Shown: positions 1,346 through 54,247, counted from the first letter of the stretch. The stretch: 64,000 nt of DNA from an uncultured Bacteroidales bacterium (GCA_964431135.1 CAYSIN010000005.1:245-64244), one strand, 5' to 3'. Numbers and translations are program-made. The notes: a model not told the origin generated them from the letters alone.

Positions 1346-1371
1346 AATACTTCTATATATTTTTAAAAAAA

Positions 1372-1467
1372 TTATATTTTACTTTATATCACTAAAATAA
1401 AATAAGAAAATTTATATTTTACTTTACGTTGCAAAAGTAAAATAAGAAAACTTATATTTTACTTTTA
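1372..1467. repeat. 40-bp tandem repeat (about 2.4 units) with internal inverted repeats, containing the fic promoter
   Basis: TTATATTTTACTTT at 1372, 1412 and 1452; AAAATAAGAAAA twice. Minus-strand -7 element TACTTTTG at 1439-1432. Confidence 0.75.
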
Positions 1468-11397: not shown

Positions 11398-11407
11398 AGC
11401 AATAAAA

Positions 11408-14400: not shown

Positions 14401-16696
14401 CAACCATGCCCGTTTTAATTGCGGAACAACTATTGTCATCGGTAACGGTGATGCTGTATGTTCCTGCTGTCAAATTAATTCTATCTTCCAGTGAATTTCC
14501 ATCGTTCCAGTTATAAGTATAAGGCATGGTTCCTCCACTGACGATGATATCTATACTCCCATCATTTCCGGGTACACAGGAAGGTGCTTCTATAATGGCA
14601 GAAATACTGGGAGCAAGCGGATTTACTACATTAAAGGTTTTTGCAATTGTACATCCATTACCATCGGTTATTGTAACTGTATAAGAATTCACATCCAATC
14701 CTGATAAATCTTCAGTAACCTGACCGTTTGACCATAAATAACTGTATGCAGGTGTACCCCCAGTCACTGTTATGTCAATGGCTCCATCATGGCTTGGAAC
14801 ACACGTTGGTGGAGTGACAATTCCCGATACATTTAATGCTGCCGGTGTATTAATTTTTACGGAATCATTCTTTGAGCAATTGTTAGCATCAAGAACTGTA
14901 ACAGAATACCATCCCGGTGCCAGTCCGATGATATCTTCTGTATTACTTCCATTACTCCAAGAATAGGAATAAGGAGATGCACCTCCTGTTACCGTTAAAT
15001 TAATAGAACCATCATTTACTCCAAAACAGGATGTGTTTTGCACGTTAAACACTAATGCCATGGCTGTACCTTCAGAGATGTAGGATGAATCGTTTTTTGC
15101 TGCACCCAGAGCGTCGGTTACCGTAACTTTGTACCAGCCTGCTTTTAACAGAGTAATGTCTTCACTGGTTGAAGTAAAACCACCTGGACCTGTCCACGCA
15201 TAGGTATATGGACCAGTACCATTGCCGGAAACGGTTAAATCTATACTTCCTGAAGAATCACCATAACAAACGTTAGGAATATTGACAAACGTCAAATTAA
15301 TTTTACCAAATTTTGCCACAAACATATCTCTGGTAGAAGGCGAAGGATTTGTGAGTGTTTTATTATTAATGTATAATGTTGCTGAATAAAAAGGACCCAC
15401 AAACAGATTGGCGTTATTGGCATTAATTTTACCATTTTCACAAAAATCGTTTCCTGTGCCCCATGCTTTGTTTACACCCAATACATTTCCATTTCTGTCC
15501 GTTTCAAGCATAAACGCATCAGTAGCACTATTTGTAAGGCTGAAAGAACTAAAAGAGATATTGCCTGTATAGGAACCGGTAAAAATAGCGTGGTCGGCAT
15601 TGGCGTATACGCCTGTTGCCTGGTCATCGCCACCAGAGCCATAACTGTTCACCCATGTTAGCGTACCGTCGTAACTGTAACATGCAGTAAAGATATCATT
15701 ACTGCCATGATTGACACAAGTTTTAGTTGAAACTTGGGTTGCTGTAGAATCAATAGTTAAAGAAGGACTGTCATAATAACCACTCAAATATTGAAAACTG
15801 GAATAATCAGTAAAATGACGTATTAAATAATCTTCACCGGTACCCTTAATACTTCTTACCCATTGAACATTACCACTCGTGTCTGTTCTAAACAACATCA
15901 TATCACGGGTAGAAGATGTACTGACAACAGTATCTACTTCCAGATAAAGACTGTCGGCATATAAACCACTGAAATAATAAGAAGTATTATCATAAGAAAC
16001 TGAACGAATATTATTGTTAGAATTATTTCCCTTGAATGTTTTTGCCCAAATTAAATTACCATTCGAATCAAATTTGGATATATAATTTTGTTGAATACCT
16101 GTATAGGGAGAAATAAAAGAAAGTATTCCACCATAAAAAGTAACCGAATTGGTATATTTACCAATTTGTATCACATTTTCGCTGGCATCAACGGTCAGGT
16201 TTCCACCAAACTGTTGGGTAACACCGTAAGCTGCTTTAATTGTCCACACCAACGAACCATCGGAAGTATTGTATTTGGCTAAAAAAACATCATTACCGCC
16301 GGAAGTTGCCAGCGTAGTTCCACCAAAATTGCAATCGTTACTTAAAAATTGACCACCTACATAAAACGTGTTTCCATTCTGACTTAATGCAATACCAGCG
16401 GCATTTTCAGCCTGTGACCCACCAATACCCTTTAGCCAAAGGAGTTGTCCTTGTCCATTGTATTTTGCTATGTAAATATCTTGACCTCCGACAGCAGTAA
16501 GAGAAAATGTATCCTGACTGATAGTATTGTTATAAATCCCAATAATATATAGATTTCCCGAAGCATCTTCTACCACAGAAACGGGGACGCTTTGTCCTGA
16601 GCCCGAAAGTTGACTTACCCACAATAAATCGTTATGCTGAGCATGCAACGTAAAAAATAATACAACCCCTAATACGGTTAATAATAAATTCTTCAT
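11408..16696 (-). CDS. SprB-like adhesin: N-terminal beta-propeller, SprB repeats, T9SS type B (gliding-motility) CTD
   Basis: DASGN/DSNGN propeller repeats, many GSIDLTVxGG...YSYxWSNG...TVTDxxGC repeats, C-terminal NAFTPNGDGKNDVW...IYDQWG...WDG...TYYY. Confidence 0.9.
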   Translation of the reverse strand: MKNLLLTVLGVVLFFTLHAQHNDLLWVSQLSGSGQSVPVSVVEDASGNLYIIGIYNNTISQDTFSLTAVGGQDIYIAKYNGQGQLLWLKGIGGSQAENAAGIALSQNGNTFYVGGQFLSNDCNFGGTTLATSGGNDVFLAKYNTSDGSLVWTIKAAYGVTQQFGGNLTVDASENVIQIGKYTNSVTFYGGILSFISPYTGIQQNYISKFDSNGNLIWAKTFKGNNSNNNIRSVSYDNTSYYFSGLYADSLYLEVDTVVSTSSTRDMMLFRTDTSGNVQWVRSIKGTGEDYLIRHFTDYSSFQYLSGYYDSPSLTIDSTATQVSTKTCVNHGSNDIFTACYSYDGTLTWVNSYGSGGDDQATGVYANADHAIFTGSYTGNISFSSFSLTNSATDAFMLETDRNGNVLGVNKAWGTGNDFCENGKINANNANLFVGPFYSATLYINNKTLTNPSPSTRDMFVAKFGKINLTFVNIPNVCYGDSSGSIDLTVSGNGTGPYTYAWTGPGGFTSTSEDITLLKAGWYKVTVTDALGAAKNDSSYISEGTAMALVFNVQNTSCFGVNDGSINLTVTGGASPYSYSWSNGSNTEDIIGLAPGWYSVTVLDANNCSKNDSVKINTPAALNVSGIVTPPTCVPSHDGAIDITVTGGTPAYSYLWSNGQVTEDLSGLDVNSYTVTITDGNGCTIAKTFNVVNPLAPSISAIIEAPSCVPGNDGSIDIIVSGGTMPYTYNWNDGNSLEDRINLTAGTYSITVTDDNSCSAIKTGMVVPINNPPSLSYLMQKPSCIPGNDGSIDLIVYNGTPPFAYNWSNSATTEDISSLSPGTYSVTVTDSKNCTATNTIILTVDSPMISLTSHGSYTFCEGDSLTIIATNGSDCTYEWYNGGSLIPGYTTPYYIAGSTGIYYAIATNSSGCKGYSDTANITVYPKPTVTINASSTDICAGNSVTLTASGGQTYLWNTGSSSNPLIIIPATTTIFSVTATDNNGCTNVANQPINVHDFPVITGTVTHETCAAGTGSIDITISHGDTPYSFLWSNLASSEDISNLVAGTYTVTVTSSSLCSSIFSAQVNPYVPLSASINTHTLVLFCSSSINGEVHVSASDGLAPYTYTWTNGVTTSYNNQIGVGTTYVTVTDQCNSSIIDSVSATSLPSMQASITSSQPATCSTSTNGYAMIMVSGGITPYSYVWSNSTSTTDIANDLSVGWHYVTVSDYCGSIIDSVQITSLPPMQASISFSAPVSCTGISNGIAVVSITDGVAPFSYIWTSGETTSTATQLPAGLNSVTVSDACGQVILSVNTGVQSPMSIDITTSSPASCPSISNGSATISVFDGSSPFTYLWTSGDTLATATHLTTGMNYVTVTDACTSLIDSVMIDVIPPVSAHITFFVNASCSNSQDGKATVNVQNGFPPYSYTWSNSASTGSVALDLSPGWNFVTVTDQCASSIDSVEIGYKTPLQAYISFNSPTDCISDSTGMAIITPMYGVQPYSYTWSFGTTTDSILQHLPTGSYFVTVSDFCGNTVVPFTINYKTPLNVTSQKENVLCFGNSNGSITLIPSNGVLPYSYHWSNASTDSIISHLSAGTYYYTVSDKCGNYTDSVIIRQPGSLSLSTIVTPVSFEGLSDGKIDLMVFGGTQPYSYLWSNSTETEDLSNISQGMYYVTITDDNGCTVSDSVNVESEGKHIEIYNAFTPNGDGKNDVWNIKYIQAFPNCSVLIYDQWGVKVFESTGYDKPWDGTKNDKQLPSATYYYVIDLKDGSKPFTGSVTLMK

Positions 16697-23686: not shown

Positions 23687-23775
23687 GGAGAGATGCCAGA
23701 GTGGTCGAATGGGGCGGTCTCGAAAACCGTTGTCCGCCGATGGGTGGACCCAGGGTTCGAATCCCTGTCTCTCCG
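23687..23775 (+). tRNA. tRNA-Ser(CGA)
   Basis: Acceptor GGAGAGA/TCTCTCC, anticodon arm GCGGT-CTCGAAA-ACCGT, long variable arm, T-arm CAGGG-TTCGAAT-CCCTG; CCA not encoded. Confidence 0.95.
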
Positions 23776-23920
23776 CAAAACAAAATATGTCTGTGAAGCA
23801 GAATTTTTTATTTAAAACAATTTCAAGTTTACTTGACAATTGGATGAAAATAAAAAATTAGTTAGAGCAAAGTAATCAATATTTTGTTTTGACATACACC
23901 TTAACGGGTTCAATGAAATT

Positions 23921-24055: not shown

Positions 24056-24733
24056 TTACCCATTTTTGCTTATGAGTTCCAGCATTTCCTTATTTAAAAT
24101 ATGTATCTGATTTTTATTCAATTCAATAATTTTTTCATTATGAAATTCGGATAACACACGGCTCACACTTTCACGGGTAGCATCAATCAGATAGCCAAAT
24201 TCCTCGCGATGCAAAGGTAAAATAAAGGAATCGGAATGATAAATTTCATTGGCAAAATAAAGAATATTTTCAGCAATACTGCCTCGTACCTGTTTTTGAG
24301 TTCTGTTAAGGCATCGATGATAGGATATCAGTTCATTTTTACATAGTTCTGCTAACAGCATCTTGGTGAATTTTGTGTTGTTGTTGACGAAACGGATAAA
24401 TACTGACAAATCTATAAAGCATATCGTAGAAGGCTCTATGGCTGTTACAGAATAATGATTTATCCGTTCACCAAAGGTGCTTGACAAGGTAAGATAGGCT
24501 GGCGCTTTTTCTATTTTAATGATTTGTTCGAAGACAGGTCCTTTCATGTGAAGTTTAACCAATCCCTGTTTAAGAAATGCTACATTGGAAGTAAGCGAGC
24601 CTTCCCTTACAATAATTTCACCTGTTTTGAATGTCAGTTCAGCATGATTTTCGGATAACGATTTCAATTCATCCTTGCTAAACGTATGTTCTATTTCCGA
24701 TGTTAGCAAGCATGCGATACAAATTTCATCCAT
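24056..24733 (-). CDS. Crp/Fnr-family transcriptional regulator
   Basis: cNMP-like domain (FKTGEIIVREG, GLVK), HTH REEFGYLIDATRESVSRVLSEF, N-terminal CIAC. Confidence 0.9.
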   Translation of the reverse strand: MDEICIACLLTSEIEHTFSKDELKSLSENHAELTFKTGEIIVREGSLTSNVAFLKQGLVKLHMKGPVFEQIIKIEKAPAYLTLSSTFGERINHYSVTAIEPSTICFIDLSVFIRFVNNNTKFTKMLLAELCKNELISYHRCLNRTQKQVRGSIAENILYFANEIYHSDSFILPLHREEFGYLIDATRESVSRVLSEFHNEKIIELNKNQIHILNKEMLELISKNG

Positions 24734-24753
24734 ATTTTATAATTATATTTGCA

Positions 24754-24769
24754 TGTGATTAACATCACA
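24754..24769. promoter_or_regulatory. Perfect CRP-type palindrome
   Basis: TGTGA-TTAACA-TCACA between the divergent crp and dsrE genes; overlaps the minus-strand -7 element TACATTTG (24775-24768). Confidence 0.75.
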
Positions 24770-24823
24770 AATGTAGATATTTATTATCACATAGATATTG
24801 TCGGGTTGAATATTTTTCTGTCG

Positions 24824-24831
24824 TAATTTTG
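24824..24831 (+). promoter_or_regulatory. -7 promoter element of the dsrE-tusA-hdr operon
   Basis: TAATTTTG 30 bp upstream of the ATG; only a weak -33 (TTG) is present, as expected for an activator-dependent promoter. Confidence 0.5.
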
Positions 24832-24861
24832 CAACAGGTAATTCTTAAAATAAAATAAATC

Positions 24862-25428
24862 ATGGAATCAGAAAATGAAAACCAACTGCTTCAACTTCAA
24901 AAGCAAGTTGATGAACTGAAAAACAAAGTGAATAAACTGGAAAAGTCAAGAAAAGACCAATTGTCCATTGCCATTGTATCGGGCGATATGGACAGACTAT
25001 TGGCTACCATGATAATTTCATTGGCAGCCGCAGCCAGCGATACCAAAGTTAAACTTTTCTTTTCGTTTTGGGCATTATCGGCTCTTAGAGATCCGAAAAA
25101 GAAAGCACAGGGAAAAGACTTTATGTCTAAAATGTTTGGATTTATGTTGCCTAAAGGAAAAAATAAATTAAAGTTATCCAAATTGAACATGGCAGGTATG
25201 GGACCTGTTATGATTAAAGGTCTGATGAAGAAACAGCATGTACTTTCGTTGGACGAAATGTTTAAACAAGCTGCTGAATTGGGTATTGAAATTTCTGTTT
25301 GTGAAATGTCCATGAATCTCATGGGATTTAAAAAAGAAGAAATGATAGATTACCCGGGCTTGAAATTTGTAGGTGCAGCCACTTTTGTTGCCGATGCTGC
25401 CGAAAGTGGAATTCAATTATTTATATAA
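24862..25428 (+). CDS. DsrE2/DsrE-like sulfur-relay protein
   Basis: LSIAIVSGDMDR, FFSFWAL, NMAGMG, VCEMSMNLMG, GAATF. Confidence 0.88.
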   Translation: MESENENQLLQLQKQVDELKNKVNKLEKSRKDQLSIAIVSGDMDRLLATMIISLAAAASDTKVKLFFSFWALSALRDPKKKAQGKDFMSKMFGFMLPKGKNKLKLSKLNMAGMGPVMIKGLMKKQHVLSLDEMFKQAAELGIEISVCEMSMNLMGFKKEEMIDYPGLKFVGAATFVADAAESGIQLFI

Positions 25429-25446
25429 TCATTAATTTTTTATTTT

Positions 25447-25698
25447 ATGGAAACAGCAGAATTATTACAATTAAAAGTCAACCATGTAGTTGATGCTCGG
25501 GGGACATCTTGTCCTGGACCTCTTTTGGCTGCCAAAAAAGCCATCGGAGAAATAGAATCGGGTGAAATACTGGAAATACTTTCGTCTGACGAAGGTACTA
25601 AACACGACATTCCAAAATGGTGTGAAAAAATGGAACATACATTTCTTGGAATAATCGAAGAAAACAGTTATGCCCGCTTATTTTTGAAAAAAGCATAA
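25447..25698 (+). CDS. tusA: TusA-family sulfur carrier
   Basis: VDARGTSCPGPLL, SSDEGTKHDIPKWC. Confidence 0.9.
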   Translation: METAELLQLKVNHVVDARGTSCPGPLLAAKKAIGEIESGEILEILSSDEGTKHDIPKWCEKMEHTFLGIIEENSYARLFLKKA

Positions 25699-25703
25699 TT
25701 TTT

Positions 25704-25736
25704 ATAGAGCAGTTATTTTTAACTGCTCTATTTTTT
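25704..25736 (+). terminator. Intra-cluster terminator or stabilising hairpin after tusA
   Basis: ATAGAGCAGTTA-TTTT-TAACTGCTCTAT followed by a T-tract. Confidence 0.7.
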
Positions 25737-25788
25737 ATTTAAAAAACAATGCCATTGTCTTAAAGATGACAAATAGAATAAGATAAAT

Positions 25789-26214
25789 ATGGAAAATATA
25801 TCATTCAAACCAAAAATTCTTGTCTTTTCAACCGATAAGATATCTGACCCCGGCATAGACCAGGCAGGGCTGCGAAAAATACATTATTCGCCGTCGGTAT
25901 ATGTAATAAGTTTGCCTTGTTCATCAGGCATAAAGCCTCGCTGGATAATGCATGCTTTTGAAAAAGGATTTGACGGTGTTTTTATTGCTGCCGATGGTCA
26001 TGAATGCTCCTATAATACAAAATGTGCCGAACATACCAATAAAATTATTTCCGATTCGCAGGCGCTTATGCAAGAAAAAAAAATAAACCCAAAACGAATT
26101 CGTATGTCAGCCATATGTTCCGTGTGTGCAGAACCATTTGCAAACCACATCGAAACATTCAGCAAAATATTATTGGAACTGGGAAGTATTTCTGAAGAAA
26201 AATTAAAAGCATAA
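25789..26214 (+). CDS. mvhD: MvhD-like (hydrogenase delta) [2Fe-2S] subunit
   Basis: LPCSSGIKPRWI.HAF.KGFDGVFI, ECSY, RIRMSAICSVCAEPF. Confidence 0.8.
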   Translation: MENISFKPKILVFSTDKISDPGIDQAGLRKIHYSPSVYVISLPCSSGIKPRWIMHAFEKGFDGVFIAADGHECSYNTKCAEHTNKIISDSQALMQEKKINPKRIRMSAICSVCAEPFANHIETFSKILLELGSISEEKLKA

Positions 26215-26238
26215 CCAAATTTTTAAAAGATACATATA

Positions 26239-28983
26239 ATGCCTAAAGAAGATAAAAATTTTGATGTACTTGTAATTGGCGGTGGTATTGCTGGACAAGA
26301 AACAGCATTAAACCTTGCCGACATGAATCATAAGGTTTTACTGGTAGAAAAAGGACATTCTATTGGTGGCACAATGATACAATTAAGTAAAGTATTTCCT
26401 ACACTTGATTGTGCTGCCTGCATTACTACACCCAAAATGTCTGAAACAGCACGTCATCCAAACATTACCCTGATGCTAGACAGCAAAATAGAAAAAATCA
26501 ATAAAAATGATACGGACTTTCAGGTAACAGTTCATCAACAAGCCCGTTATATTATTCCCGAAGCCTGTACAGGATGCGGAGAATGCGAAGTTGTTTGTCC
26601 CGAAGTGCGACCCGATGAATATAATACACAACTGGCAGGAACCAAAGTAGCCCATATTCCCTTTGCACTTGCTAATCCACGTATTTCTGCCATTGAACGA
26701 AACAATACTTCGGCACCCTGTATCAATGAATGTCCTGGCGGCGTAAAGGCTTATGGTTATATTTCGCTGGTAAGAAATAAACAGTACGAAGAAGCCATGA
26801 AACTTCATTTGGAAGATATTCCACTGCCCGGAAGTTTGGGACGTGCTTGCTATGCACCCTGTCAGGTTGCCTGTACTCGCAGTTCACTCGATTCATCCGT
26901 AGATATAAGACGAATAAAACGTTTCTTTGCTGAAGAATATTATCAAAAACATGCGGAACCCGAAAAAATTGAAATACGACAGTCGTTAACTCAAAAAATT
27001 GCTGTTGTGGGTTCAGGACCTGCAGGATTAACAGCCGCTTATCATTTAGCATTAAAAGGATATAAAGTAAAAATTTTTGAAGCATCCCCCGTTTTGGGTG
27101 GTATGTTGATACTTACTTTACCCGAGTATCGTTTACCTAAAGCCGTTGTTGAAAGAGATGTAAAAAATATTCTTTCACTTGGTGTTGAATATGAAACCAA
27201 TAAGAAAATAGATAACTTAAAACAACTGAAAGAAGAAGGATTTGACAGTATATTTGTTTCTGTTGGCACTCATGAAACGCCTAAATTAAGAATAGAAGGT
27301 GCTGAGTTGGAAAATATTGTTTCGTGTCTCGATTTTTTACGTGAAGCGAACATAGGCGAGCGTAAAAATTTAAAAGGGAAAAAAGTAATGGTTATTGGTG
27401 GTGGCAATACGGCCATGGATGCTTCACGAACAGCCCTGCGTTTGGGAGCAGAAAAAGTTACCGTGGTATATCGTCGTAGCCGTGAAGAAATGCCTTGCTT
27501 TAAACCAGAAATAGAGGAAGCAGAAGAAGAAGGTGTAGAAATATTGGTTTTACGCAATCCTGTTAAATTTATGGGAAAAAACGGAAAGATAACCAATGTT
27601 CAACTGATAAAAATGAGATTAGGAGAACCCGATAAGGACGGAAGAAGAAAACCTGAACCCATAGAAGGTTCTGAATACATAGAAGAAGTAGATTTTGTAA
27701 TTGAAGCCATTGGATTGCAACCTTCAACTTCTCTATTCGCTAATACGCTTGAATTGAATAAAAATGGAACTATAAAAGTAAATAATTTTACTTTACAAAC
27801 ATCGGTTGATTACATATTTGCCGGTGGCGATTCAGTTACAGGTGCAACAACTATTATTGCAGCAGCCGGACAAGGCAAAAAGGCTGCCTTTTATATAGAC
27901 AAATTTTTGAAGGGACTGAAACTTGAAGAATATGAATCGGGCGACAAGTTACCAGCGGTAGATAAAAATACAGTTTTAAACAAACCAAATTTACCTTCTA
28001 TACCCAAAGTAAAACAAAAAATGAGACCTGCCAAAGAGCGTATTCATGACTTTAATGATGTAGAATTGACTTTTACCGAAGAAGAAGTATTACAAAGCGC
28101 CAAACGTTGCCTCGATTGCAGCAATTGTCGTGAATGTCATCAATGTGTAAATGCGTGCCCGGCGTATGCTATAGATTTTTCTCAAAAACATAAAACAGAA
28201 TCTATAACAGCCAAATCGGTCGTTGTTTCTACAGGGTATAAACTTTTTCCACCACAAGGAAAACCTGAATATGGTTATGGAATATATCCCAATGTAATTG
28301 ATTCTTTACAAATGGATAGACTGATTGCACCTACCAGACCTTTTAACAACGTTCTAAGACCGGGCGATGGTAAAACACCCGACAATATTGCTTATATATT
28401 ATGTACAGGCTCACGCGATTCGGCAATTGAAAATAAAAGTTGCAGCGTTGAATGCTCCAACAATCCTATTTGTTCACAGATTTGCTGCATGTATTCCATT
28501 AAACAGGCTCAACTTTTAATGGGTGCTTTACCCATGGCAGATATCACCATTTATTATATAGATATACGTGCTTTTGGTAAAGGATATGAAGAATTTTATC
28601 AACAAGCAAAATCTATGGGAGTAAATTTTATAAAAGGGAAAGTTGCTAAAATTAGAGAAAAAGATGACCACAGTGGTAATCTTATTTTACGATATGAGGA
28701 TGTTACAACGGGTAAACTGAAAGAATCGGAACACGACGTAGTTGTACTTTCTGTAGGTGTTTTGCCAAACAAAGAAGTACCCAATATGTTTGGCAATGTA
28801 AAACTTGAACTGGATACATTTAATTTTGTTAAACAGGTGGATGAATTAGTAAACCCTGCCAAAACGAGCATTGAAGGTGTATTTGTTGCCGGTGCTGCCT
28901 CTGGTCCAAAAGATATTCCCGATTCCATATTATCTGCTGGATGTGCCTCTACCGAAGTAGCGGGCTATATCAATAAATTGTAA
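26239..28983 (+). CDS. HdrA/QmoA-like flavoprotein with an inserted GltD/NfnB-type NAD(P)H module (HdrL-like)
   Basis: GGGIAG, FPTLDCAACITTPK, CTGCGECEVVCP; inserted PCINECPGG, GRACYAPCQVAC, GSGPAG, GGGNTAMD, YRRSREEM; then CTGSRD, CSQICCMYS, GPKDIPDS. Confidence 0.88.
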   Translation: MPKEDKNFDVLVIGGGIAGQETALNLADMNHKVLLVEKGHSIGGTMIQLSKVFPTLDCAACITTPKMSETARHPNITLMLDSKIEKINKNDTDFQVTVHQQARYIIPEACTGCGECEVVCPEVRPDEYNTQLAGTKVAHIPFALANPRISAIERNNTSAPCINECPGGVKAYGYISLVRNKQYEEAMKLHLEDIPLPGSLGRACYAPCQVACTRSSLDSSVDIRRIKRFFAEEYYQKHAEPEKIEIRQSLTQKIAVVGSGPAGLTAAYHLALKGYKVKIFEASPVLGGMLILTLPEYRLPKAVVERDVKNILSLGVEYETNKKIDNLKQLKEEGFDSIFVSVGTHETPKLRIEGAELENIVSCLDFLREANIGERKNLKGKKVMVIGGGNTAMDASRTALRLGAEKVTVVYRRSREEMPCFKPEIEEAEEEGVEILVLRNPVKFMGKNGKITNVQLIKMRLGEPDKDGRRKPEPIEGSEYIEEVDFVIEAIGLQPSTSLFANTLELNKNGTIKVNNFTLQTSVDYIFAGGDSVTGATTIIAAAGQGKKAAFYIDKFLKGLKLEEYESGDKLPAVDKNTVLNKPNLPSIPKVKQKMRPAKERIHDFNDVELTFTEEEVLQSAKRCLDCSNCRECHQCVNACPAYAIDFSQKHKTESITAKSVVVSTGYKLFPPQGKPEYGYGIYPNVIDSLQMDRLIAPTRPFNNVLRPGDGKTPDNIAYILCTGSRDSAIENKSCSVECSNNPICSQICCMYSIKQAQLLMGALPMADITIYYIDIRAFGKGYEEFYQQAKSMGVNFIKGKVAKIREKDDHSGNLILRYEDVTTGKLKESEHDVVVLSVGVLPNKEVPNMFGNVKLELDTFNFVKQVDELVNPAKTSIEGVFVAGAASGPKDIPDSILSAGCASTEVAGYINKL

Positions 28984-29004
28984 TTAAAATTTAATACTAC
29001 ATAC

Positions 29005-31203
29005 ATGAAAGAAAAAATAGGCGTTTATATTTGTCATTGCGGAGGAAATATTTCCGACTATGTGGACGTGGAAGAAATTGCCAAAATGTTGAAAGATGAA
29101 GATGGAGTGATTATTTCTAAGGATGTCATGTTTGCCTGTGCCGATTCAAACCAAAAGGACATGGTAAATGATATTAAGGAATATAATCTGGATGCTATTG
29201 TGGTAGCATCGTGCTCGCCAAAATTGCATTTACATACGTTTAAGGGAGTTGCAGAACGTGCAGGACTCAATCCGTCCAATTATGTGCAGGTTAATATTCG
29301 TGAACAATGTTCATGGCCTCATTCCGATAAACCCACCGATGCTACCATTAAAGCCGTTGGATTAATCAGAGCCGGCATTAAACGCGTTGCCTATTCCGAA
29401 TCACTTGAAAATATCGAAATCGGTGTTAAAAAATCGGCACTGGTTGTAGGTGCTGGCATTGCTGGGCTTAAAGCCACCATAGATTTAGCCCGTCTTGGAA
29501 ATGAAGTTTATTTGATTGAAAAAGATTATTTTATTGGTGGACGTATTACGCAAACCGAAACGTTATTTCCAACAGAACAGAATAGTAAAGAAATCATCAC
29601 GAAACTTTATGAAGAAATAAAAAAATACAATAACATTACCCTTTTTACCGGGGCAACCATAGAAAAAGTATCGGGAAGTCTTGGCAATTTTAATGTTGAT
29701 ATAAAAGTTAAGCCACGATTTATTAACAGCAGAACCGATATTCAAACGGTGCAGAAAGCCATGGATGAATGTGCTGTTTTTGTAGAAGACGATTTTAATT
29801 TGGGATTGACCAAACGTAAAGCCATTTATAAAAATTATCCCGAAGCATTACCAAATGTTCCGGTAATTATTCCGGCGGCATTGGTTAATGAAAAGGATTT
29901 TCTTCAAAAATTTGCTTCCTGCTTCGATTTTAATCAAAAAGATGAAATTTTATCACTGGTAGCCGGCTCCGTTCTGGTTACTACCGGTTTTGATTACTAT
30001 CAACCCAAAGAAGGAGAATTCGGATATAAAAATATTCCGACCGTTATTACACTTCCCGAGTTTAATAGGCTGGTGGAATTAAGCCCAGATAAATTAATAC
30101 ACAATGGAAAAGAAATTAAAAAAGTAGCATTTATTTATTGCGTCGGCAGTCGTCAGACCAAAGGCGAAAATAAATATTGCTCGCGACAGTGTTGCTCTTC
30201 AACTATTTATACTTCGTTGAACATACATAAAAAATATAAAAACATCACTTCATTTCACTTATACAGGGATATAAGAACATACGGTAAACAAGAAATCCTT
30301 TATGAAAAATCATCTAAACAAGGTGATATTTATATTCGATATGATGAAAAGGAACCGCCCAGTGTTGAATTACAAGGTCAAGATATCATTGTAAAAGTAA
30401 AAGATTATCTTACACAAAAAAAAGAACTGGAAATTGAAACAGATTTGGTGGTACTTGTTACAGGAATGACCTCACGAAGAGACAGCCAAATGATTTCCGA
30501 CAAATTTAAAATACCTGTTGGCAACGATAAATTCTTTAACGAAATCCACCCGAAATTAAAACCAGTAGAAACGGTAATCAAGGGCGTATATATTGGCGGG
30601 ACCTGTCAGGGACCAAAAAATGTTTCCGAATCCGTTCAGTCATCGCTTTCGGCAGTAGCAAAAATAAATGCCATTTTAAAAGGCGGCAAAGTATCATTAG
30701 ACCCGGTCATTGCACGCGTAAATACCGATGCCTGCGTATGGTGCGGAAAATGTGCCGAAGTATGCGAATACGATGCCATTAAAGAGATTGAAGAAAACGG
30801 AAAGAAAATAGCATTTGTTAATAAAGCTACCTGTGCAGGTTGTGGTATCTGTGCACCTGTTTGCCCAGTAAATGCTATTGAAATAGCACAATACACCGAT
30901 AATGAAATCGAATCAATGATAGATGGATTTATGCAAGAGGTAGCGTTTAAGGAAAAAACAGGTGAAATAGAAAAAGTAGAAGAAATAAATACTGTTAGCA
31001 TGAAGGAGTATCCACTTTTGTGGAATGAAATTATATCTACCTTAAAAACAGAAAAACAAACTATACCACAAATGGCTCAAAAATTAAACTTACAAAAAGA
31101 ACTTATAACCTATCATGTAATGACCATGCACAAATATAACATTCTTGTAGCCGACGGCATGGACAATAAAGAACAATATTATTACTATACATTAAAAAAA
31201 TAA
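29005..31203 (+). CDS. hdrA: HdrA/QmoB-like flavoprotein with C-terminal ferredoxin and winged-helix extension
   Basis: GVYICHCGGNI, CSPKLH, NIREQCSW, GAGIAG, CVGSR, YCSRQCC, GTCQGPKNV, CVWCGKCAEVC, CAGCGICAPVCP. Confidence 0.88.
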   Translation: MKEKIGVYICHCGGNISDYVDVEEIAKMLKDEDGVIISKDVMFACADSNQKDMVNDIKEYNLDAIVVASCSPKLHLHTFKGVAERAGLNPSNYVQVNIREQCSWPHSDKPTDATIKAVGLIRAGIKRVAYSESLENIEIGVKKSALVVGAGIAGLKATIDLARLGNEVYLIEKDYFIGGRITQTETLFPTEQNSKEIITKLYEEIKKYNNITLFTGATIEKVSGSLGNFNVDIKVKPRFINSRTDIQTVQKAMDECAVFVEDDFNLGLTKRKAIYKNYPEALPNVPVIIPAALVNEKDFLQKFASCFDFNQKDEILSLVAGSVLVTTGFDYYQPKEGEFGYKNIPTVITLPEFNRLVELSPDKLIHNGKEIKKVAFIYCVGSRQTKGENKYCSRQCCSSTIYTSLNIHKKYKNITSFHLYRDIRTYGKQEILYEKSSKQGDIYIRYDEKEPPSVELQGQDIIVKVKDYLTQKKELEIETDLVVLVTGMTSRRDSQMISDKFKIPVGNDKFFNEIHPKLKPVETVIKGVYIGGTCQGPKNVSESVQSSLSAVAKINAILKGGKVSLDPVIARVNTDACVWCGKCAEVCEYDAIKEIEENGKKIAFVNKATCAGCGICAPVCPVNAIEIAQYTDNEIESMIDGFMQEVAFKEKTGEIEKVEEINTVSMKEYPLLWNEIISTLKTEKQTIPQMAQKLNLQKELITYHVMTMHKYNILVADGMDNKEQYYYYTLKK

Positions 31204-31208
31204 GGAAC

Positions 31209-32378
31209 ATGGCTAAAGTAAATCCCGATTTTGTAAATGAAATTAAAAAATTTGGAGCAAGTGATTTTGATGCATGCTTCAATTGCGGAAACTGTACAGC
31301 AATATGCTCGCTTACCGATGCAGATAATTCGTTCCCAAGAAAAATAATCCGTTATACTACGCTTGGACTTGAAAGTGAAATACAATCTTCGTTAGAGCCA
31401 TGGCTGTGCTATTATTGCGGCGATTGCTCCACATCGTGCCCGCGACAGGCAGACCCAGGCAACCTGATGATGTCCGTTAGAAGATACCTGACCGCTAACT
31501 ACGACTGGACAGGCATTTCAAAAAAACTATATACTTCAAAAGTTTGGGAAATAGGATTAATCGGATTAATTTCGTTAGCAGTTCTTACGATGTTTATCCT
31601 TTATCATGGTGATATGACTACAGAACTCACCAGCGAAGGAGGCGTAAAACTGAATACTTTTGCTCCGTGGCAAATCATCGAAAAAATTGACTGGGGACTG
31701 GCTGCATTCCTTTCTTTCTTCCTGCTTTCCAATATTGTGAATATGTACTTTAAAATAGTCGGAACGAAGAAAAAAGTACCCTTTAAAATGTATTTTATAC
31801 AATTGTATAAATTAATTCTCCATTTTTTTACACAAAAGAACTTTGCAAAATGCAATACAGAAAAAATATCTTTTGCACAAAAAATTAAAAATGGCAGTTA
31901 TACATATTGGATAGTGCACTTTTTGCTGATGTCGAGTTACGTGCTGTTGTTTATTATGATAGTTGGCTTTTTGGGATGGTTTCAGACCGAAGCCATTCAT
32001 CCGTGGTATTATCCGCAACGGTTGTTTGGTTATTATTCGACCATAGGACTGCTGTTTGGAACTGTATATTTCTCTATATTGCGATATAAGAAAACATCGG
32101 AAAAGTCTAAAAAAACACATTATACCGACTGGACGTTTCTTATTCTCTTATTCCTCACCGCTTCTACGGGGATACTACTGCATTTCTTCAGAATAAGCGG
32201 AATGCCTTATGCAACGTACTACACGTATGTCATACATTTAATGGTTTTATTCCCGATGCTGATGATTGAAGTGCCGTTTTCCAAATGGTCGCATCTGGCA
32301 TACAGACCTTTTGCCATCTATTTTTCAAGCCTTGTAAAGGCAACTGCCGAAAAAAGTAATGTAAATACCAAAAAATAA
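31209..32378 (+). CDS. QmoC-like subunit (HdrC-type 2x[4Fe-4S] domain plus membrane cytochrome b domain)
   Basis: CFNCGNCTAIC, CYYCGDCSTSCP, about 6 TM helices with His (IVHF, LLHF, VIHL) and KWSHLAYRP. Confidence 0.82.
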   Translation: MAKVNPDFVNEIKKFGASDFDACFNCGNCTAICSLTDADNSFPRKIIRYTTLGLESEIQSSLEPWLCYYCGDCSTSCPRQADPGNLMMSVRRYLTANYDWTGISKKLYTSKVWEIGLIGLISLAVLTMFILYHGDMTTELTSEGGVKLNTFAPWQIIEKIDWGLAAFLSFFLLSNIVNMYFKIVGTKKKVPFKMYFIQLYKLILHFFTQKNFAKCNTEKISFAQKIKNGSYTYWIVHFLLMSSYVLLFIMIVGFLGWFQTEAIHPWYYPQRLFGYYSTIGLLFGTVYFSILRYKKTSEKSKKTHYTDWTFLILLFLTASTGILLHFFRISGMPYATYYTYVIHLMVLFPMLMIEVPFSKWSHLAYRPFAIYFSSLVKATAEKSNVNTKK

Positions 32379-32387
32379 TTTAACCTT

Positions 32388-32846
32388 ATGAAAGAATTTA
32401 AAACATCCGATGATATTCTCAATTTTGCTATAGAAAGAGAACAAAGTTCCATAGATTTTTATCAGGAACAAGCATCAAAATCGGTCAACAACCATATTCG
32501 AAAAACATTCGAACGATTTGCCAAAGAAGAAAAAGGGCATAAATCAAAACTTATCAAAATAAAAGAGAAAAAGACATTCGAATTAAGCAAAAATAATATG
32601 AGGGATTTAAAAATTGCCGACTATATAAGTGATGATATTGTCAGTACCGATAATTTGAATTATCAAGACGCATTGATTTTGGCTATGAAACGTGAAAAAT
32701 CTGCTTTTAAACTTTATACCGCACTTGCCAATAAAACAAACGACACGTTATTGCAAAATTTGTTTTTAAAATTAGCCTCGGAAGAATCAAAACATAAACT
32801 GATGTTTGAACTGGAATACGATGAAGTTATTTTGAACGAAAATTAA
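32388..32846 (+). CDS. Ferritin-like/rubrerythrin-family di-iron protein
   Basis: Duplicated E...Y...EExxH motifs (EREQSSIDFY/EEKGH; KREKSAFKLY/EESKH). Confidence 0.85.
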   Translation: MKEFKTSDDILNFAIEREQSSIDFYQEQASKSVNNHIRKTFERFAKEEKGHKSKLIKIKEKKTFELSKNNMRDLKIADYISDDIVSTDNLNYQDALILAMKREKSAFKLYTALANKTNDTLLQNLFLKLASEESKHKLMFELEYDEVILNEN

Positions 32847-39209: not shown

Positions 39210-40103
39210 TTAATATTCCCACAAATCATGTTCAAAGGTAAATACAAAATCTTTGATTCTTTCCGATTCGAGCAAGGCATCTAACCCTAATTTGAATTCT
39301 GCAATTACACGGTTGTCATACACATTGGTTTCCTTAAAAATATAACTGCTAAAACGACGTTTAAAAAAGATATCATCAAACGTTCTTCGTTCTGAATCAT
39401 TATAGGGATTAAATACTTCATGATTGGCAAATAACGGCCTTGCAGCCTGGAAATAAATCCACATTACCTGCGTCATGGTAAGTTCCTTTTCTTCAGAACT
39501 GTCAGCAGCACTGCTTATTTGTTGCTCACCTTCGCCTAGTGCAGCCTCTTTAGCATACATTCGTATAGGGCATATTCCTATTATTCTGCATTCAAGCATG
39601 GCTCGTTGTTTGTCAAAATACCAGTATTCTTTTAATAAAATACGTGTAACTTCTTCTGGTTTTCTTTCGGTTAAAATTGGTTTAGGAGTTTGTGTCCCCG
39701 TAGTTTCATCTATAATGTAAGTAGTATCTATTTTGGCACCAAGTTTTTTGTTTACATCAGCCATTGTTATTGGTGTTGTAAATTCATCATCAATATCGCT
39801 GTATGCAGTCAAACCTTCATTTTCAATTCCATATAGTAATAATTCTGTTAAACTGTAACGGTCATCCATTTTACGAGTAGGAAAATAAAGTGGAAAATTT
39901 ATTTTCTCACGTAAATCAAGCATTCTCCATAATTTTTTACCCCACATGACATCCGCTTCACGTAAATGATGATAAGGAACCGGTTTACGTGCAGGTACAT
40001 TTTCCTTTACGTAAACACCGTCGAGCACCTCACTTTGCTTTTGCTGAGCAAAAGCACCAAAGGATATTAAACCGACTGTCATTAAAACAAATACTTTTTT
40101 CAT
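39210..40103 (-). CDS. gldN: T9SS/gliding protein GldN/PorN
   Basis: LREADVMW.K.LWR.LDLREKIN.PLYFP, WYFDKQR, FDDIF.KRRFSSYI, FEHDLWEY. Confidence 0.93.
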   Translation of the reverse strand: MKKVFVLMTVGLISFGAFAQQKQSEVLDGVYVKENVPARKPVPYHHLREADVMWGKKLWRMLDLREKINFPLYFPTRKMDDRYSLTELLLYGIENEGLTAYSDIDDEFTTPITMADVNKKLGAKIDTTYIIDETTGTQTPKPILTERKPEEVTRILLKEYWYFDKQRAMLECRIIGICPIRMYAKEAALGEGEQQISSAADSSEEKELTMTQVMWIYFQAARPLFANHEVFNPYNDSERRTFDDIFFKRRFSSYIFKETNVYDNRVIAEFKLGLDALLESERIKDFVFTFEHDLWEY

Positions 40104-40118
40104 AATAATATTGTTTTA

Positions 40119-41792
40119 TTATTGCATTTTAAAAACAATTGCAGGCAAATTTCTCACAGTGCCATCAGGCCCAACCGCTTTTACATCTTCAATATAAAGT
40201 TTTTTACCTCGCTGAACCTGATTAATCAGAGCCGTCATTTCCGCTGTAAAACGAGAACCTCTGGTGGTTGCCTGTTTACTAAATCCACCAATAGTAGAAG
40301 AAATAGTAAATTCTGAAACATTAAATTTTAAATCAAAGTCAAAATTTTCAAGCGTAGCAGAAACGCCACCTTGTGCCAACAAAACACTCTTTGGTATAGA
40401 ACCACCTTTTTTCCCACCAACAGTGGGTACTGGGTCAGGAATACGTTTTACACGAAAGTCTTTTGAGCCCATACTGCGTGTAGAACCTTTATCGTCTTTT
40501 ACCGAGACAGATATTTTTGTAGGACCCAATTTAGTAACTTTAGCAATCCATTGACCTTTACCTGAACGGAAAAGAGAACCACCTGCTACACTTGCTGAAA
40601 TTTGGTCATCTCTAAATCCAGGAACAGATATTTCTATGGGATTATCTACGCCTGTATATAATACATTCATTTTAACAGGTGAAACAACCGCCATAGGAGG
40701 TGCAACTGTGTATTCAATATTATATTTACCACCTGACTTAACAGGTACTTCTTTGTATAATCCTGTAGATGGATTAAATACTCTGATAATGGCAGCATAC
40801 GAATGACTTCCTACGCCAGCACCATCAACCTGATAATGAGCAACACCTCGCTGCATTTTAAGTGTTTTAACATTTCCTGTTAATTTTCCATTAATAGAAT
40901 CATACGAATCACCGATTAAAACTTGTGATACCGTATCGGTAGAACTAAATGCAGCAATAAATAATTCAGCATCGTATTTATCGCCTGATATTAAGTAGTT
41001 AGACTTTGGAATTACACGAGGTGCCACGGTATCAAACTTAAAGTCTGTTGCACCAATAGCGCTTAACAATGTTTTGATTATAATTGCCTCTGCATTTTTA
41101 ATTTGATTTTGAATTTGAGATAATATAGTAACTGAGGCTATAGCCGGTATTTCAGAAAACAATTCCGTTTCCCAATATCTGTCTGCTGGAAAATCTACTC
41201 TTGGGTGAGGATTATTATCCGTATTTATACTAAGATTACCTAATCCTTTTATCTGTTTTTCTTTATCCGGTAATTGTATTTTAGGATTTTTTACTAAATC
41301 AAATAAATTTTTCTTGTATTCTATTAATTTATTTTTTAACACACGTGCATTTCCTTGTGAACCATCTTCACTATTACCCAACATATAAAAATTTGGTATA
41401 TCCCGTTGGTCTTTCTCTTCAAATAAAACAAGGTCTTTGACCGCCTTAATGGCTTCTTCTTTTGGAATCCCATCACATTTCATTATTATTTCGACCTTCA
41501 TGTTCTCAACATAATCAAACATCTCTGATGTATATGCCTTTGCTTTCATGGCAGCATCAAAATATGGAGTTGCTTTTATAGGGTCATTCTGTTTGGCACG
41601 AGCAAAGGCATCATAAGTAAATCCGTTTTGTAAAGTAAAATTAATATTTGTTTTTTGCAATCCATCGTTTACCACAGCAAATGCATCCAAAATATCTTTC
41701 GATACATTCAATGCAAGCATGGCTGTATAAAACAAATACATCATTTGTATCATCTTCTGCCTCGGGGTTTCCGGACAATTGGTTGCACCCAT
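40119..41792 (-). CDS. gldM: T9SS/gliding motor rotor GldM/PorM
   Basis: ETPRQKMIQMMYLFYTAMLALNVS, MNVLYTGVDNP, FRVKRIPDP. Confidence 0.95.
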   Translation of the reverse strand: MGATNCPETPRQKMIQMMYLFYTAMLALNVSKDILDAFAVVNDGLQKTNINFTLQNGFTYDAFARAKQNDPIKATPYFDAAMKAKAYTSEMFDYVENMKVEIIMKCDGIPKEEAIKAVKDLVLFEEKDQRDIPNFYMLGNSEDGSQGNARVLKNKLIEYKKNLFDLVKNPKIQLPDKEKQIKGLGNLSINTDNNPHPRVDFPADRYWETELFSEIPAIASVTILSQIQNQIKNAEAIIIKTLLSAIGATDFKFDTVAPRVIPKSNYLISGDKYDAELFIAAFSSTDTVSQVLIGDSYDSINGKLTGNVKTLKMQRGVAHYQVDGAGVGSHSYAAIIRVFNPSTGLYKEVPVKSGGKYNIEYTVAPPMAVVSPVKMNVLYTGVDNPIEISVPGFRDDQISASVAGGSLFRSGKGQWIAKVTKLGPTKISVSVKDDKGSTRSMGSKDFRVKRIPDPVPTVGGKKGGSIPKSVLLAQGGVSATLENFDFDLKFNVSEFTISSTIGGFSKQATTRGSRFTAEMTALINQVQRGKKLYIEDVKAVGPDGTVRNLPAIVFKMQ

Positions 41793-41832
41793 AATCTTTT
41801 CCCTTTATATAATATTAATACCTTATTTCAAT

Positions 41833-42927
41833 TTATTTGGTAAAATTCATGGCTGCCAGCATATTTCCATAAATAGTATTCATGGCTGCCAAATTCTGAC
41901 TGAGTTTTGAAATTTCCTGACGATAAACTTTAACATCTTCAGCAGAGTTTTTCATGGTTTCCATCATCTCATCTATGCCGCTAAACAGTTTCTTTGAATT
42001 TTCCAAATACTCGTTAGACCCTTGCAGTTGCAATTCGTAAATAGCATTTAATGCAGTTAAATTTTTTGCCATGATTTGTAATTGCTCTGAATAGTTTTTA
42101 GATTGAGATTTTGTTGTATCAGCCTCATTAATTACTGCTTGTGATAATTTTTGATATGCTTCTGCCAAACTGCTGCCAGAATTTTTTAATATTGAATTAA
42201 ATTGATTAATCGTATTATCGGTAAGTGTTGCACCATTTTCATAAACTTGAGATAATTTTGATGTTGATTGATTTAAAGCATCGCCAAACTTTTCGGATGA
42301 CTGTTTTAATATTTCAGCAGATTTTTGAGCAGACTGATTTAACACATCACCAAACTTTTCAGATGACTGTTTTAATATTTCAGCAGATTTTTGAGCAGAC
42401 TGATTTAAATTTTCGGCAGACTGACCGTATAAATTTGCAAATTCATTCACTTTGGTTGATGCTTTTTCAAAACTTTGAACATAATTGTTAGTTGCAACTG
42501 TGGCTTCGCTAACATCAGCCAGTTTTTCGGTTGTTTGATTCAACGAACGCAATCCATTCCCAAGTTTTTCAAATAAATCGGGTGTAATTTGAGCACTGTT
42601 TAACAATTCATCAAATTTTTCTAATGCAGATTTTTTGTTACTTACACCTTTTTTTGCTTCTTCGTCTTCAATTTCATCATGCATTCCTGCCAATTCTGGA
42701 TAAGCAAGACTCCAATCCCATTCCTGATGCAAAGGTTCAAAAGCAGACATAAAGAAAATAAATGCTTCGGTTAGCAAACCTGCTGCCAACATAAATCCTG
42801 CACCTGGATAGTGTTGAATTTTGAACAATGCACCTACCATTACAACGGAAGCTCCCCATCCGTAAACCTTTGACATAAAGTTTTTCCAACCTTTGGTTGC
42901 TGTCACTTCTGAAATACTAAATCCCAT
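41833..42927 (-). CDS. gldL: T9SS/gliding motor stator GldL/PorL
   Basis: YGWGASVV.VGALFKIQH.PGA, TEAFIFFMSAFEP, WDWSLAYPEL, LNAIYELQL, NTIYGNML. Confidence 0.95.
   Translation of the reverse strand: MGFSISEVTATKGWKNFMSKVYGWGASVVMVGALFKIQHYPGAGFMLAAGLLTEAFIFFMSAFEPLHQEWDWSLAYPELAGMHDEIEDEEAKKGVSNKKSALEKFDELLNSAQITPDLFEKLGNGLRSLNQTTEKLADVSEATVATNNYVQSFEKASTKVNEFANLYGQSAENLNQSAQKSAEILKQSSEKFGDVLNQSAQKSAEILKQSSEKFGDALNQSTSKLSQVYENGATLTDNTINQFNSILKNSGSSLAEAYQKLSQAVINEADTTKSQSKNYSEQLQIMAKNLTALNAIYELQLQGSNEYLENSKKLFSGIDEMMETMKNSAEDVKVYRQEISKLSQNLAAMNTIYGNMLAAMNFTK
42269..42408. repeat. 66-bp in-frame tandem duplication inside gldL
   Basis: 42269-42334 and 42335-42400 differ at only four bases; a partial third unit follows. 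Encodes NQSAQKSAEILKQSSEKFGD(V/A)L. Confidence 0.9.
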
Positions 42928-42965
42928 AACTAAAATTTTTATAAGTTAATAATTATTTTTCCATA

Positions 42966-44408: not shown

Positions 44409-44420
44409 ATACCATATTTT

Positions 44421-53779: not shown

Positions 53780-53858
53780 ATAATCTAAATATCTACATAT
53801 ATAGATATAATATTAAAAAAAAGATATTACCTTTGCAAAATTTTTAAACTGAAATAAT

Positions 53859-54230: not shown

Positions 54231-54247
54231 AACCTAACAGAAAACGT

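Follow-up and report, generated by a model that had tools for sequence, protein, structure and literature searches.

A Bacteroidales bacterium that has not been cultured, and whose genome is known to us from 64 kb of DNA (GCA_964431135.1 CAYSIN010000005.1:245-64244; this whole stretch is called the window below), carries an operon in which genes for two sulfur-carrier proteins are joined to genes for a flavoprotein complex of the Hdr/Qmo type. Here we show that the conserved unit consists of six genes plus a regulator: a DsrE-family gene, tusA, mvhD, hdrL, hdrA and qmoC, with a crp-like gene lying divergent from them. The building blocks HdrA, HdrL, MvhD, QmoC, TusA and DsrE2 are all known, and their combination is uncharacterised. 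We favour the view, to which we give a probability of roughly 45%, that the operon encodes a bifurcating or confurcating complex, linked to menaquinone and to reduced nicotinamide adenine dinucleotide (phosphate) (NAD(P)H), that reduces sulfane sulfur carried by TusA and DsrE2.

A conserved six-gene unit and its regulator

Genes were assigned by calling open reading frames (ORFs) and by Pfam and NCBIfam profile searches. An earlier reading of this DNA, made from the sequence alone (below, the sequence-only reading), had placed eight genes in the cluster, and for all eight the ORF positions agree exactly with the coordinates it gave, as do the domains. The Crp/Fnr-family regulator (24056-24733, minus strand), with cNMP_binding, HTH_Crp_2 and Crp domains, is divergent from the operon, which lies on the plus strand and opens with genes for a DsrE2-type sulfur-carrier protein (24862-25428; PF13686, E=1e-43) and for a TusA-family sulfur carrier with a CPGP motif (25447-25698; PF01206, E=2e-22). 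These are followed by the gene for an MvhD/FlpD-like [2Fe-2S] electron-transfer subunit of 141 aa (25789-26214; PF02662, E=1e-28), by hdrL (26239-28983; 914 aa), whose product consists of an HdrA N-part, a GltD/NfnB-like module with NAD(P)H, flavin adenine dinucleotide (FAD) and [4Fe-4S] sites, and an HdrA C-part, and by hdrA (29005-31203; 732 aa). The sixth gene, qmoC-like (31209-32378), encodes a membrane subunit with an HdrC-like domain and a cytochrome b domain (NF038018, E=3e-58). Nine nucleotides after it, also on the plus strand, lies a gene for a rubrerythrin/ferritin-like diiron protein with both ExxH motifs (32388-32846; PF02915, E=1e-15). A Pfam scan of all other ORFs of at least 120 aa in the window found no CCG-domain HdrB, AprAB, Sat, DsrAB or hydrogenase, as the sequence-only reading had stated.

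To place the cluster among its relatives, HdrL was searched against one genome per GTDB species, and 577 of the 600 listed stretches encode a relative, which makes at least 577 species genomes. Synteny was counted in the best 80 of these loci, in which ORFs were called and matched to the window proteins; individual loci are denoted below by L and a number. In this survey of cluster conservation, which the sequence-only reading had proposed, the order crp (opposite strand), DsrE-family gene, tusA, mvhD, hdrL, hdrA, qmoC is kept in essentially every one of the 80 loci with enough flank, an arrangement far beyond chance. The core from the DsrE-family gene to hdrA, completed by QmoC or by HdrC plus HdrB (HdrCB), is syntenic across at least six phyla among the best 80 loci, and loci that at first appeared to lack dsrE2 have a shorter DsrE-family gene in its position. 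The cluster is neither rare nor peculiar to its phylum.

The carriers are mostly Bacteroidales (Paludibacter, Proteiniphilum, Rikenellaceae, Muribaculaceae, Prolixibacteraceae, Draconibacterium and Marinifilum), and the window HdrL has more than 120 sequence clusters of homologues at over 70% identity to it, of which those with organism names are Bacteroidota (metagenome-assembled genomes, MAGs). Other carriers are Rectinemataceae (Spirochaetota), Aminicenantes, Acidobacteria, Actinomycetota, a deltaproteobacterium and the sulfate reducer Desulfotruncus alcoholivorax. Sulfate reduction is not known in Paludibacter, Proteiniphilum, Marinifilum, Draconibacterium, Rikenellaceae and similar carriers.

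The ferritin-like gene, which the sequence-only reading had included in the cluster, has a homologue in none of the 80 related loci and therefore lies outside the conserved unit as a lineage-specific add-on. In the relatives, the position after qmoC is taken by OsmC (L002, L003, L005, L006 and L009), by thioredoxin (L045 and others), by a Nitro_FeMo-Co-like protein, DUF134 or other small genes, or by nothing. The small Nitro_FeMo-Co (NifX/NifB-like) and DUF134 proteins adjoin the operon in L036 (15946-16296), L039, L059, L043 (16077-16559) and L069 (7592-8272), and in the last of these the two are joined in one protein. Two further observations concern hdrL and its surroundings. In one lineage of Bacteroidales MAGs, the gap between hdrL and hdrA holds a small gene for a "23S rRNA intervening sequence protein" (PF05635; L081:12751-13530, L082:3494-3814 and L083:3332-3652). 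In two MAGs, hdrL is split by in-frame stops (L034:10916-10918 and L047:10979-10981); selenocysteine could be ruled out as the cause, the stops being TAA and TAG at differing, non-cysteine positions, and these genes are pseudogenes or assembly errors.

The evidence that ties the cluster to protein-bound sulfur proved stronger than the sequence-only reading had assumed: in every one of the best 80 loci, across phyla, tusA has a DsrE-family gene as its neighbour, and both the sulfur-trafficking extensions and the HdrCB variants described below add to it. The conservation of cysteines and histidines was assessed across 47 to 79 orthologues per protein. DsrE2, which has an N-terminal charged or coiled-coil extension of about 30 aa and which among solved structures comes nearest to 3PNX and 2QS7 (of the soluble DsrE2B type), has a single cysteine, Cys147, that is invariant in 63 sequences. 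TusA has an invariant Cys22 in its CPGP motif and a Cys59 that is conserved in 92% of 73 sequences. Both proteins miss the equivalog cut-offs of NCBIfam (TusA 57 vs 78, DsrE2 55 vs 210), and hence are members of their families, not equivalogs. In L076, L064 and L041 (inverted), the operon has an upstream extension that consists of tusA, genes for a YeeE/YedE-type transporter, four or five rhodaneses and a phosphate-porin-type outer-membrane protein, and a DsrE-like gene, a set that probably imports and traffics a sulfur compound from outside. The Desulfotruncus operon adjoins a SulP permease gene and a gene for a CsoR/RcnR-family regulator with a CxxC motif and without the Cu-type C-H-C signature. 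Downstream of the operon, at a distance of a few kb, a Rectinemataceae MAG (L069:18046-19972) has adjoining genes for a multihaem cytochrome c and a tandem rhodanese.

The membrane end of the complex is its variable part. The window QmoC-like protein aligns to NF038018 across model positions 4-360 of 360; it has eight invariant cysteines, two [4Fe-4S] sites in its HdrC-like domain, conserved histidines at positions 205, 237, 343 and 362, and five or six predicted transmembrane or hydrophobic segments. Its score of 198 bits, like the 141-211 bits of four variants from related loci, is under the equivalog cut-off of 300. L060, L064, L067 and L080 have, in place of QmoC, an HdrC-like protein of 100 aa and an HdrB-like protein of about 320 aa with a CCG domain, and L075 has both QmoC and the HdrC/HdrB pair; the CCG-type HdrB is confined to these five loci. 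An alternation of QmoC and HdrBC is known for the true Qmo of Gram-positive sulfate reducers (PMC8477390, PMC3333476). The window QmoC is only 40% identical to that of L001 (15139-16188), whose HdrL is 78% identical to the window HdrL, and 70% identical to that of L043 (14810-15994), whose HdrL is 69% identical. The membrane module is mosaic relative to the rest of the operon, which suggests that it has been exchanged. The stable core is DsrE-TusA-MvhD-HdrL-HdrA, with an apparently interchangeable high-potential or membrane end.

The crp gene is divergent from the operon in most Bacteroidota loci. Its product has a confirmed Crp fold and scores far below the cut-offs of the FNR families, whose motif consists of four cysteines; of the cysteines of the Crp-like protein, all 47 orthologues retain Cys5 and Cys8 (an N-terminal CxxC) and Cys105, and Cys131 is conserved in 74%. 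Such cysteines would suit an Fe-S or thiol-based sensor. The crp-dsrE2 intergenic region contains TGTGATTAACATCACA (24754-24769), the sole perfect TGTGA-N6-TCACA palindrome of the window, in which 0.02 would be expected, and this palindrome recurs between crp and dsrE2 in related loci, in 31 of 36 such regions. CRP boxes with one mismatch occur in the window about as often as expected (2 vs 2.2), so that there is no signal beyond the operon box. About 30 nt before the ATG of dsrE2, direct reading of the plus strand shows TAATTTTG (24824-24831), which fits TAnnTTTG and which we take to be a Bacteroidetes -7 element with a presumed promoter role; TAcaTTTG is found at the matching relative position in related loci. 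A scan for sigma-70-type promoters was uninformative (39 vs 36.5 expected), Bacteroidota promoters being different.

Between tusA and mvhD lies a terminator- or attenuator-like hairpin (25704-25741, plus strand) with a perfect 12-bp stem, a T-run and a free energy of -16.6 kcal/mol, and no TAnnTTTG follows it in the gap. A hairpin without a second promoter-like element suggests attenuation, by which more carrier than enzyme would be made. Comparably strong hairpins are present in about 14 of 71 loci, and in non-Bacteroidota loci the tusA-mvhD gap is just 1-15 bp. In both Aminicenantes loci, the regulator adjoining the operon is Rex instead of Crp, and in Desulfotruncus the CsoR/RcnR-family protein takes that place.

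The flavoprotein pair and its relation to described systems

The two flavoproteins HdrL and HdrA differ in the cofactor sites that they retain. In HdrL, residues ~153-640 form an NfnB/GltD/StnC-like module of about 480 aa that is nested at the position of the inserted ferredoxin domain; according to profile and structure matches it is intact, with two [4Fe-4S] sites and with FAD and NAD(P)H binding. HdrL lacks the N- and C-terminal domains of HdrA. It retains the motif DC58xxC61, the core cysteines C722/745/749/750, a CxxCxxCxxxC motif at C110-120 and a cysteine-rich ferredoxin-like motif at C624-640, the last two flanking the NfnB-like module, one on each side. HdrA, on the other hand, aligns with residues 3-646 to the full length of methanogen HdrA (5ODC_A, E=5e-128), scoring 432 bits against methanogen HdrA and 102 bits against sHdrA (6TJR). 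Conserved in it are the four N-terminal cysteines, the core C379/392/396/397 and two C-terminal CxxCxxCxxxC motifs. Compared with 5ODC_A, it has lost both CxxCxxCxxxC motifs of the inserted ferredoxin domain, which are likewise unconserved in its orthologues, and its FPTxDCxxC motif is replaced, reading FPTEQNSKEI.

HdrL and HdrA thus carry complementary motifs, which jointly amount to one complete set of HdrA cofactor sites. This complementarity suggests a heterodimer in the manner of QmoA and QmoB, with MvhD, which has five invariant cysteines, as connector, and it upholds the logic of a QmoA-like HdrL and a QmoB-like HdrA that the sequence-only reading had put forward. The same motifs weaken the coupling to ferredoxin that had also been proposed. 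Of the HdrA clusters, some of which reportedly lead to ferredoxin, those of the inserted domain are lost from HdrA itself; the corresponding motifs are present in HdrL, where they flank the NfnB-like module and have no obvious free exit.

At its C-terminus HdrA extends beyond methanogen HdrA by a domain of about 67 residues (~666-732; nucleotides 31000-31200 of the window) that is strongly conserved in 65 orthologues. Its matches to winged-helix families of Pfam (ArsR/MarR-like) are weak but consistent, reaching 2e-7 (HTH_5) for the copy of L060. The tail is found in no methanogen HdrA of the PDB alignment, and in L067 (5389-5634) and L080 (14447-14698) the winged-helix domain is a separate small ORF. 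A single-sequence AlphaFold prediction of the domain had a pLDDT of 42, too low for use. As a guess, the tail might act as a docking platform.

Several described systems share features with the cluster, and it is a canonical form of none of Qmo, Hdr or sHdr, its separation from canonical Qmo resting on NCBIfam cut-offs and architecture. Like QmoABC, it combines two HdrA-related flavoproteins with a QmoC-type subunit (an HdrC-like part fused to an HdrE/NarI-like dihaem b domain) and an MvhD module. For Qmo it has been proposed that quinol and a low-potential co-donor confurcate onto a partner from sulfur metabolism (PMC3333476), a proposal that can be applied to this cluster too. Unlike in QmoABC, the QmoA counterpart of the window carries an NfnB/GltD-like module of about 480 aa, so that the co-donor would be built in; MvhD is separate, whereas in Qmo an MvhD-like domain is fused to the C-terminus of QmoB, and QmoA is a small flavoprotein with the HdrA core (PMC3333476); and the QmoB counterpart ends in a winged-helix domain. 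Moreover, the cluster is linked to TusA/DsrE2 and not to AprBA/Sat, and most of the organisms that carry it are not sulfate reducers.

Closest among the systems described so far are the HdrABC/HdrL-MvhD modules of sulfate reducers, themselves biochemically uncharacterised, such as HdrL1-3 of D. autotrophicum, Sfum_0819-0824 of S. fumaroxidans and Dred_1325-30 of D. reducens. They share the HdrL architecture, the adjacent MvhD and a second HdrA, and the window HdrL agrees with the published definition of HdrL, being an HdrA-type flavoprotein fused to a GltD-like module with mvhD immediately upstream (PMC2702500). These modules have been proposed to be NADH-linked bifurcating or confurcating reductases of DsrC (PMC2702500, PMC5947623, PMC4759654). 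The HdrCB-type loci L060, L064, L067 and L080 essentially match them, with TusA and DsrE added. Unlike those modules, the window cluster has TusA/DsrE2 as partners instead of DsrC, DsrAB or Fdh, and QmoC replaces HdrBC in most loci.

The other comparisons are more distant. With the MvhAGD-HdrABC complex of methanogens (5ODC), the window shares the N-terminal, thioredoxin-reductase-like and C-terminal ferredoxin domains of HdrA, MvhD, and an HdrC-like domain encoded downstream; it differs in that the window has no MvhAG [NiFe] hydrogenase or HdrB, in that HdrA lacks the inserted-ferredoxin clusters and DCxxC, in a likely HdrL/HdrA heterodimer instead of an HdrA homodimer, and in a substrate that would not be CoM-S-S-CoB. 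The sHdr-LbpA system is likewise an Hdr-like complex that is tied genetically to TusA and DsrE2-type carriers, sometimes with rhodaneses (PMC11094781), but the window lacks HdrB, a stand-alone HdrC and an LbpA-like gene, and has NAD(P)H and quinone modules added. HdrL residues ~153-640 match the modules of NfnB, GltD and StnC type found in NfnAB, DsrL and Stn; DsrL reportedly shows that such an NAD(P)H module can serve dissimilatory sulfur enzymes (PMC7596348). Here, in contrast, the module is nested in an HdrA-type flavoprotein, and there is no NfnA-type gene in the cluster. Finally, the combinations of YeeE/YedE, TusA, DsrE-family proteins and rhodaneses in L076, L064 and L041 resemble the YTD cluster, the cst operon and YeeE-TusA (TsuAB), although in none of these known sets is there a coupling to an HdrL/HdrA/QmoC redox complex. 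In the literature searched we found no description of the cluster in Bacteroidota, and an earlier mention in key reviews is possible; the nearest published mention is a brief one on Cloacimonadota MAGs, in which Hdr genes beside those for TusA, a sulfurtransferase and a sulfur transporter were read as serving sulfur oxidation (PMC8542988).

Electron path, substrate and direction

From the gene content, cofactor motifs and context variants we infer how the complex might be assembled and how it might work. MvhD, HdrL, HdrA and QmoC would form a membrane-anchored complex in which HdrL and HdrA pair as a QmoA/QmoB-like heterodimer bridged by MvhD. NAD(P)H would enter at the NfnB-like FAD of HdrL. 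One branch would lead from HdrA through the HdrC-like clusters and the two b-haems of QmoC to (or from) menaquinone, and along the other, carrier-bound sulfur would be reduced to sulfide. In the cytoplasm, the complex would act on sulfane sulfur that TusA and DsrE2 carry in the form of a persulfide or perhaps of an S-thiosulfonate, and the external sources of this sulfur may be imported zero-valent sulfur, polysulfide or thiosulfate. The best candidate for the thiol site is the conserved DCxxC beside the HdrL flavin; in loci with HdrC and HdrB for QmoC, the CCG cluster is a further possible site. In hosts that would be fermentative anaerobes without Apr and Dsr, the complex could be an electron sink, or could support a sulfur respiration that conserves a little energy, and the Crp/Fnr-type regulator with its three invariant cysteines would switch the operon on via the TGTGA-N6-TCACA box.

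The reductive direction is favoured for three reasons. The extended loci encode an importer together with a porin. The regulator beside both Aminicenantes operons, Rex, is NADH-sensing, which fits an NADH-consuming role. And there is a precedent in the HdrL-MvhD-HdrA-HdrBC modules of D. reducens and S. fumaroxidans, which are sulfate-induced and were proposed to reduce DsrC (PMC4759654, PMC5947623).

Several findings weigh against this proposal. Most loci, that of the window among them, are of the QmoC type, and in these no site for reducing a disulfide or persulfide, for instance a CCG-type HdrB, can be recognised, so that the sulfur chemistry would depend on the unproven role of DCxxC in HdrL. 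The YeeE/rhodanese extension is present in only 3 of the 80 loci, and the best match of the L076 transporter is the selenium-linked YedE/FdhT, below threshold. The variable downstream genes (rubrerythrin, OsmC and thioredoxin) hint at a stress role. There is also an energetic difficulty. The standard potentials are -320 mV for NAD(P)H, -74 mV for menaquinone, -270 mV for S0/H2S and -402 mV for the reduction of thiosulfate to sulfide and sulfite. NAD(P)H alone could therefore reduce S0 and would not need the quinone, and the average of NAD(P)H and menaquinol, about -197 mV, is too positive for S0. The quinone link is hence puzzling, unless the substrate has a lower potential, as thiosulfate has, or the direction is reversed. 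A version in which NAD(P)H is bifurcated to menaquinone (downhill) and to a sulfur substrate of low potential, for example carrier-bound thiosulfonate, would make sense thermodynamically, as would the opposite direction.

The same potentials lead to an oxidative or detoxifying alternative, which we regard as the foremost rival, though unlikely on the whole, and in which sulfide or carrier-bound sulfane sulfur is oxidised, in a manner like that of SQR or sHdr, while the electrons are bifurcated to menaquinone (downhill) and NAD(P)+ (uphill). TusA and DsrE2 would accept or pass on the sulfane product, and the benefit would be detoxification of sulfide and reactive sulfur, or an extra electron donor for fumarate respiration. 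This direction is thermodynamically easier, because the midpoint of NAD(P)+ and menaquinone, at about -197 mV, lies above the -270 mV of S0/H2S, and the HdrL clusters that flank the NfnB-like module fit NAD(P)+ as low-potential acceptor. To judge from record titles, many of the loci come from sulfidic habitats; TusA and DsrE accompany the sulfur-oxidising sHdr systems (PMC11094781), and the similar Cloacimonadota cluster has been interpreted as oxidative (PMC8542988). However, neither LbpA nor sHdrB1B2C1C2, nor a persulfide dioxygenase or sulfite-handling genes, were seen in the window or the loci examined, and a porin, a YeeE importer and Rex fit uptake and NADH disposal better than the oxidation of freely diffusing H2S. 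Somewhat less probable again is a sulfur-independent bifurcating NAD(P)H:menaquinone(:ferredoxin) oxidoreductase resembling FixABCX, with TusA and DsrE2 as accessories, either redox regulators or concerned with cofactor care. All the parts for NAD(P)H input, flavin bifurcation and quinone exit are present, the C-terminal domain of HdrA with its two [4Fe-4S] motifs could dock ferredoxin, and an HdrB or other obvious sulfur-reducing site is missing from most loci; a merely accessory role is nevertheless hard to square with carrier genes that occur in every locus and keep invariant catalytic cysteines, or with the sulfur-trafficking extensions and HdrB variants, and the inserted-ferredoxin clusters of methanogen HdrA are lost from the window HdrA.

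A module for thiol, peroxide or reactive-species defence, or for selenium trafficking, in which NAD(P)H would re-reduce small carrier proteins, seems to us highly improbable. The genes after qmoC are indeed mostly of stress type, HSP20, ClpB and hemerythrin genes lie upstream in L081, YedE/FdhT gives the best score for the L076 transporter and TusA also resembles YedF. Yet these stress-type neighbours are not conserved, unlike the six-gene core, every selenium-family score is far below its cut-off, and known peroxide or thiol reductases are much simpler than a quinone-linked complex with three flavins. We give almost no credence to an ordinary QmoABC serving an APS (adenosine 5'-phosphosulfate) reductase that is encoded elsewhere in the genome. 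QmoC is the best NCBIfam family for the membrane subunit and the logic of QmoA, QmoB and QmoC is there, but every QmoC-like variant tested scores below the cut-off, the subunits differ in their build, with an NfnB insertion, a separate MvhD and a winged-helix tail, neither aprBA nor sat turned up among those genes of the window and of related loci that were examined, the linkage to TusA and DsrE is constant, and carriers such as Paludibacter or Proteiniphilum are not known sulfate reducers.

Our preferred reading thus remains a menaquinone- and NAD(P)H-linked complex that would reduce carrier-bound sulfane sulfur. It retains from the sequence-only interpretation the sulfur-carrier link and the gene logic; the ferredoxin link, the ferritin gene and the supposed rarity have been weakened or abandoned. 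A more far-reaching version, which we offer tentatively and consider rather doubtful, is that the cluster encodes a previously unrecognised sulfur respiration: an NAD(P)H-driven complex, coupled to menaquinone and bifurcating or confurcating, would reduce sulfane sulfur or thiosulfonate bound to TusA/DsrE, the QmoA-like subunit having the nucleotide co-donor built in, and hundreds of "fermentative" species of Bacteroidales, Spirochaetota, Aminicenantes and other groups would use it.

Genomic surroundings and implications

The cluster is flanked by housekeeping genes and by genes for gliding and type IX secretion. The latter, found in the Pfam scan as GldLMN, PorP/SprF and SprB, make a Bacteroidota host well supported, as the sequence-only reading had it. 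They lie in two groups, one with PorP/SprF and a 1762-aa SprB-repeat adhesin (10495-16696), and one with GldN-GldM-GldL, a protein with an FGE-sulfatase domain (PF03781) and PorP/SprF (39210-45410). A tRNA-Ser(CGA) gene (23687-23776) is located about 280 nt past the 3' end of the crp-like gene. A flavoprotein gene (PF02441), some 21 kb from the operon, is followed by two tandem thioredoxin genes (53201-54700), with no CRP box near. At the edge of the window (209-3003), a Fic/DOC-family gene adjoins that of a type I restriction-modification methylase (HsdM), and a 166-aa ORF (8971-9471) matches ribosomal protein Thx in its first 26 residues and continues as a long C-terminal extension.

The HdrL relatives occur mostly in organisms that are regarded as plain fermenters. 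If the proposed sulfur role is true, surveys based on the markers dsrAB, aprAB, psr, phs and asr would overlook a widespread pathway by which sulfide is formed or consumed. The complex would then be a natural "Qmo with its third partner attached", in which the coupling of quinol to a low-potential partner proposed for Qmo becomes directly testable, and its membrane or high-potential module, in the form of two QmoC types or HdrCB, would be interchangeable around a fixed DsrE-TusA-MvhD-HdrL-HdrA core. Should the more far-reaching version, that of an unrecognised respiration, also be true, much of the cryptic sulfide of anoxic sediments, digesters and guts would come from organisms that are scored as non-sulfur-metabolisers, and the cluster would provide a tractable model for the long-debated hypothesis of Qmo confurcation.

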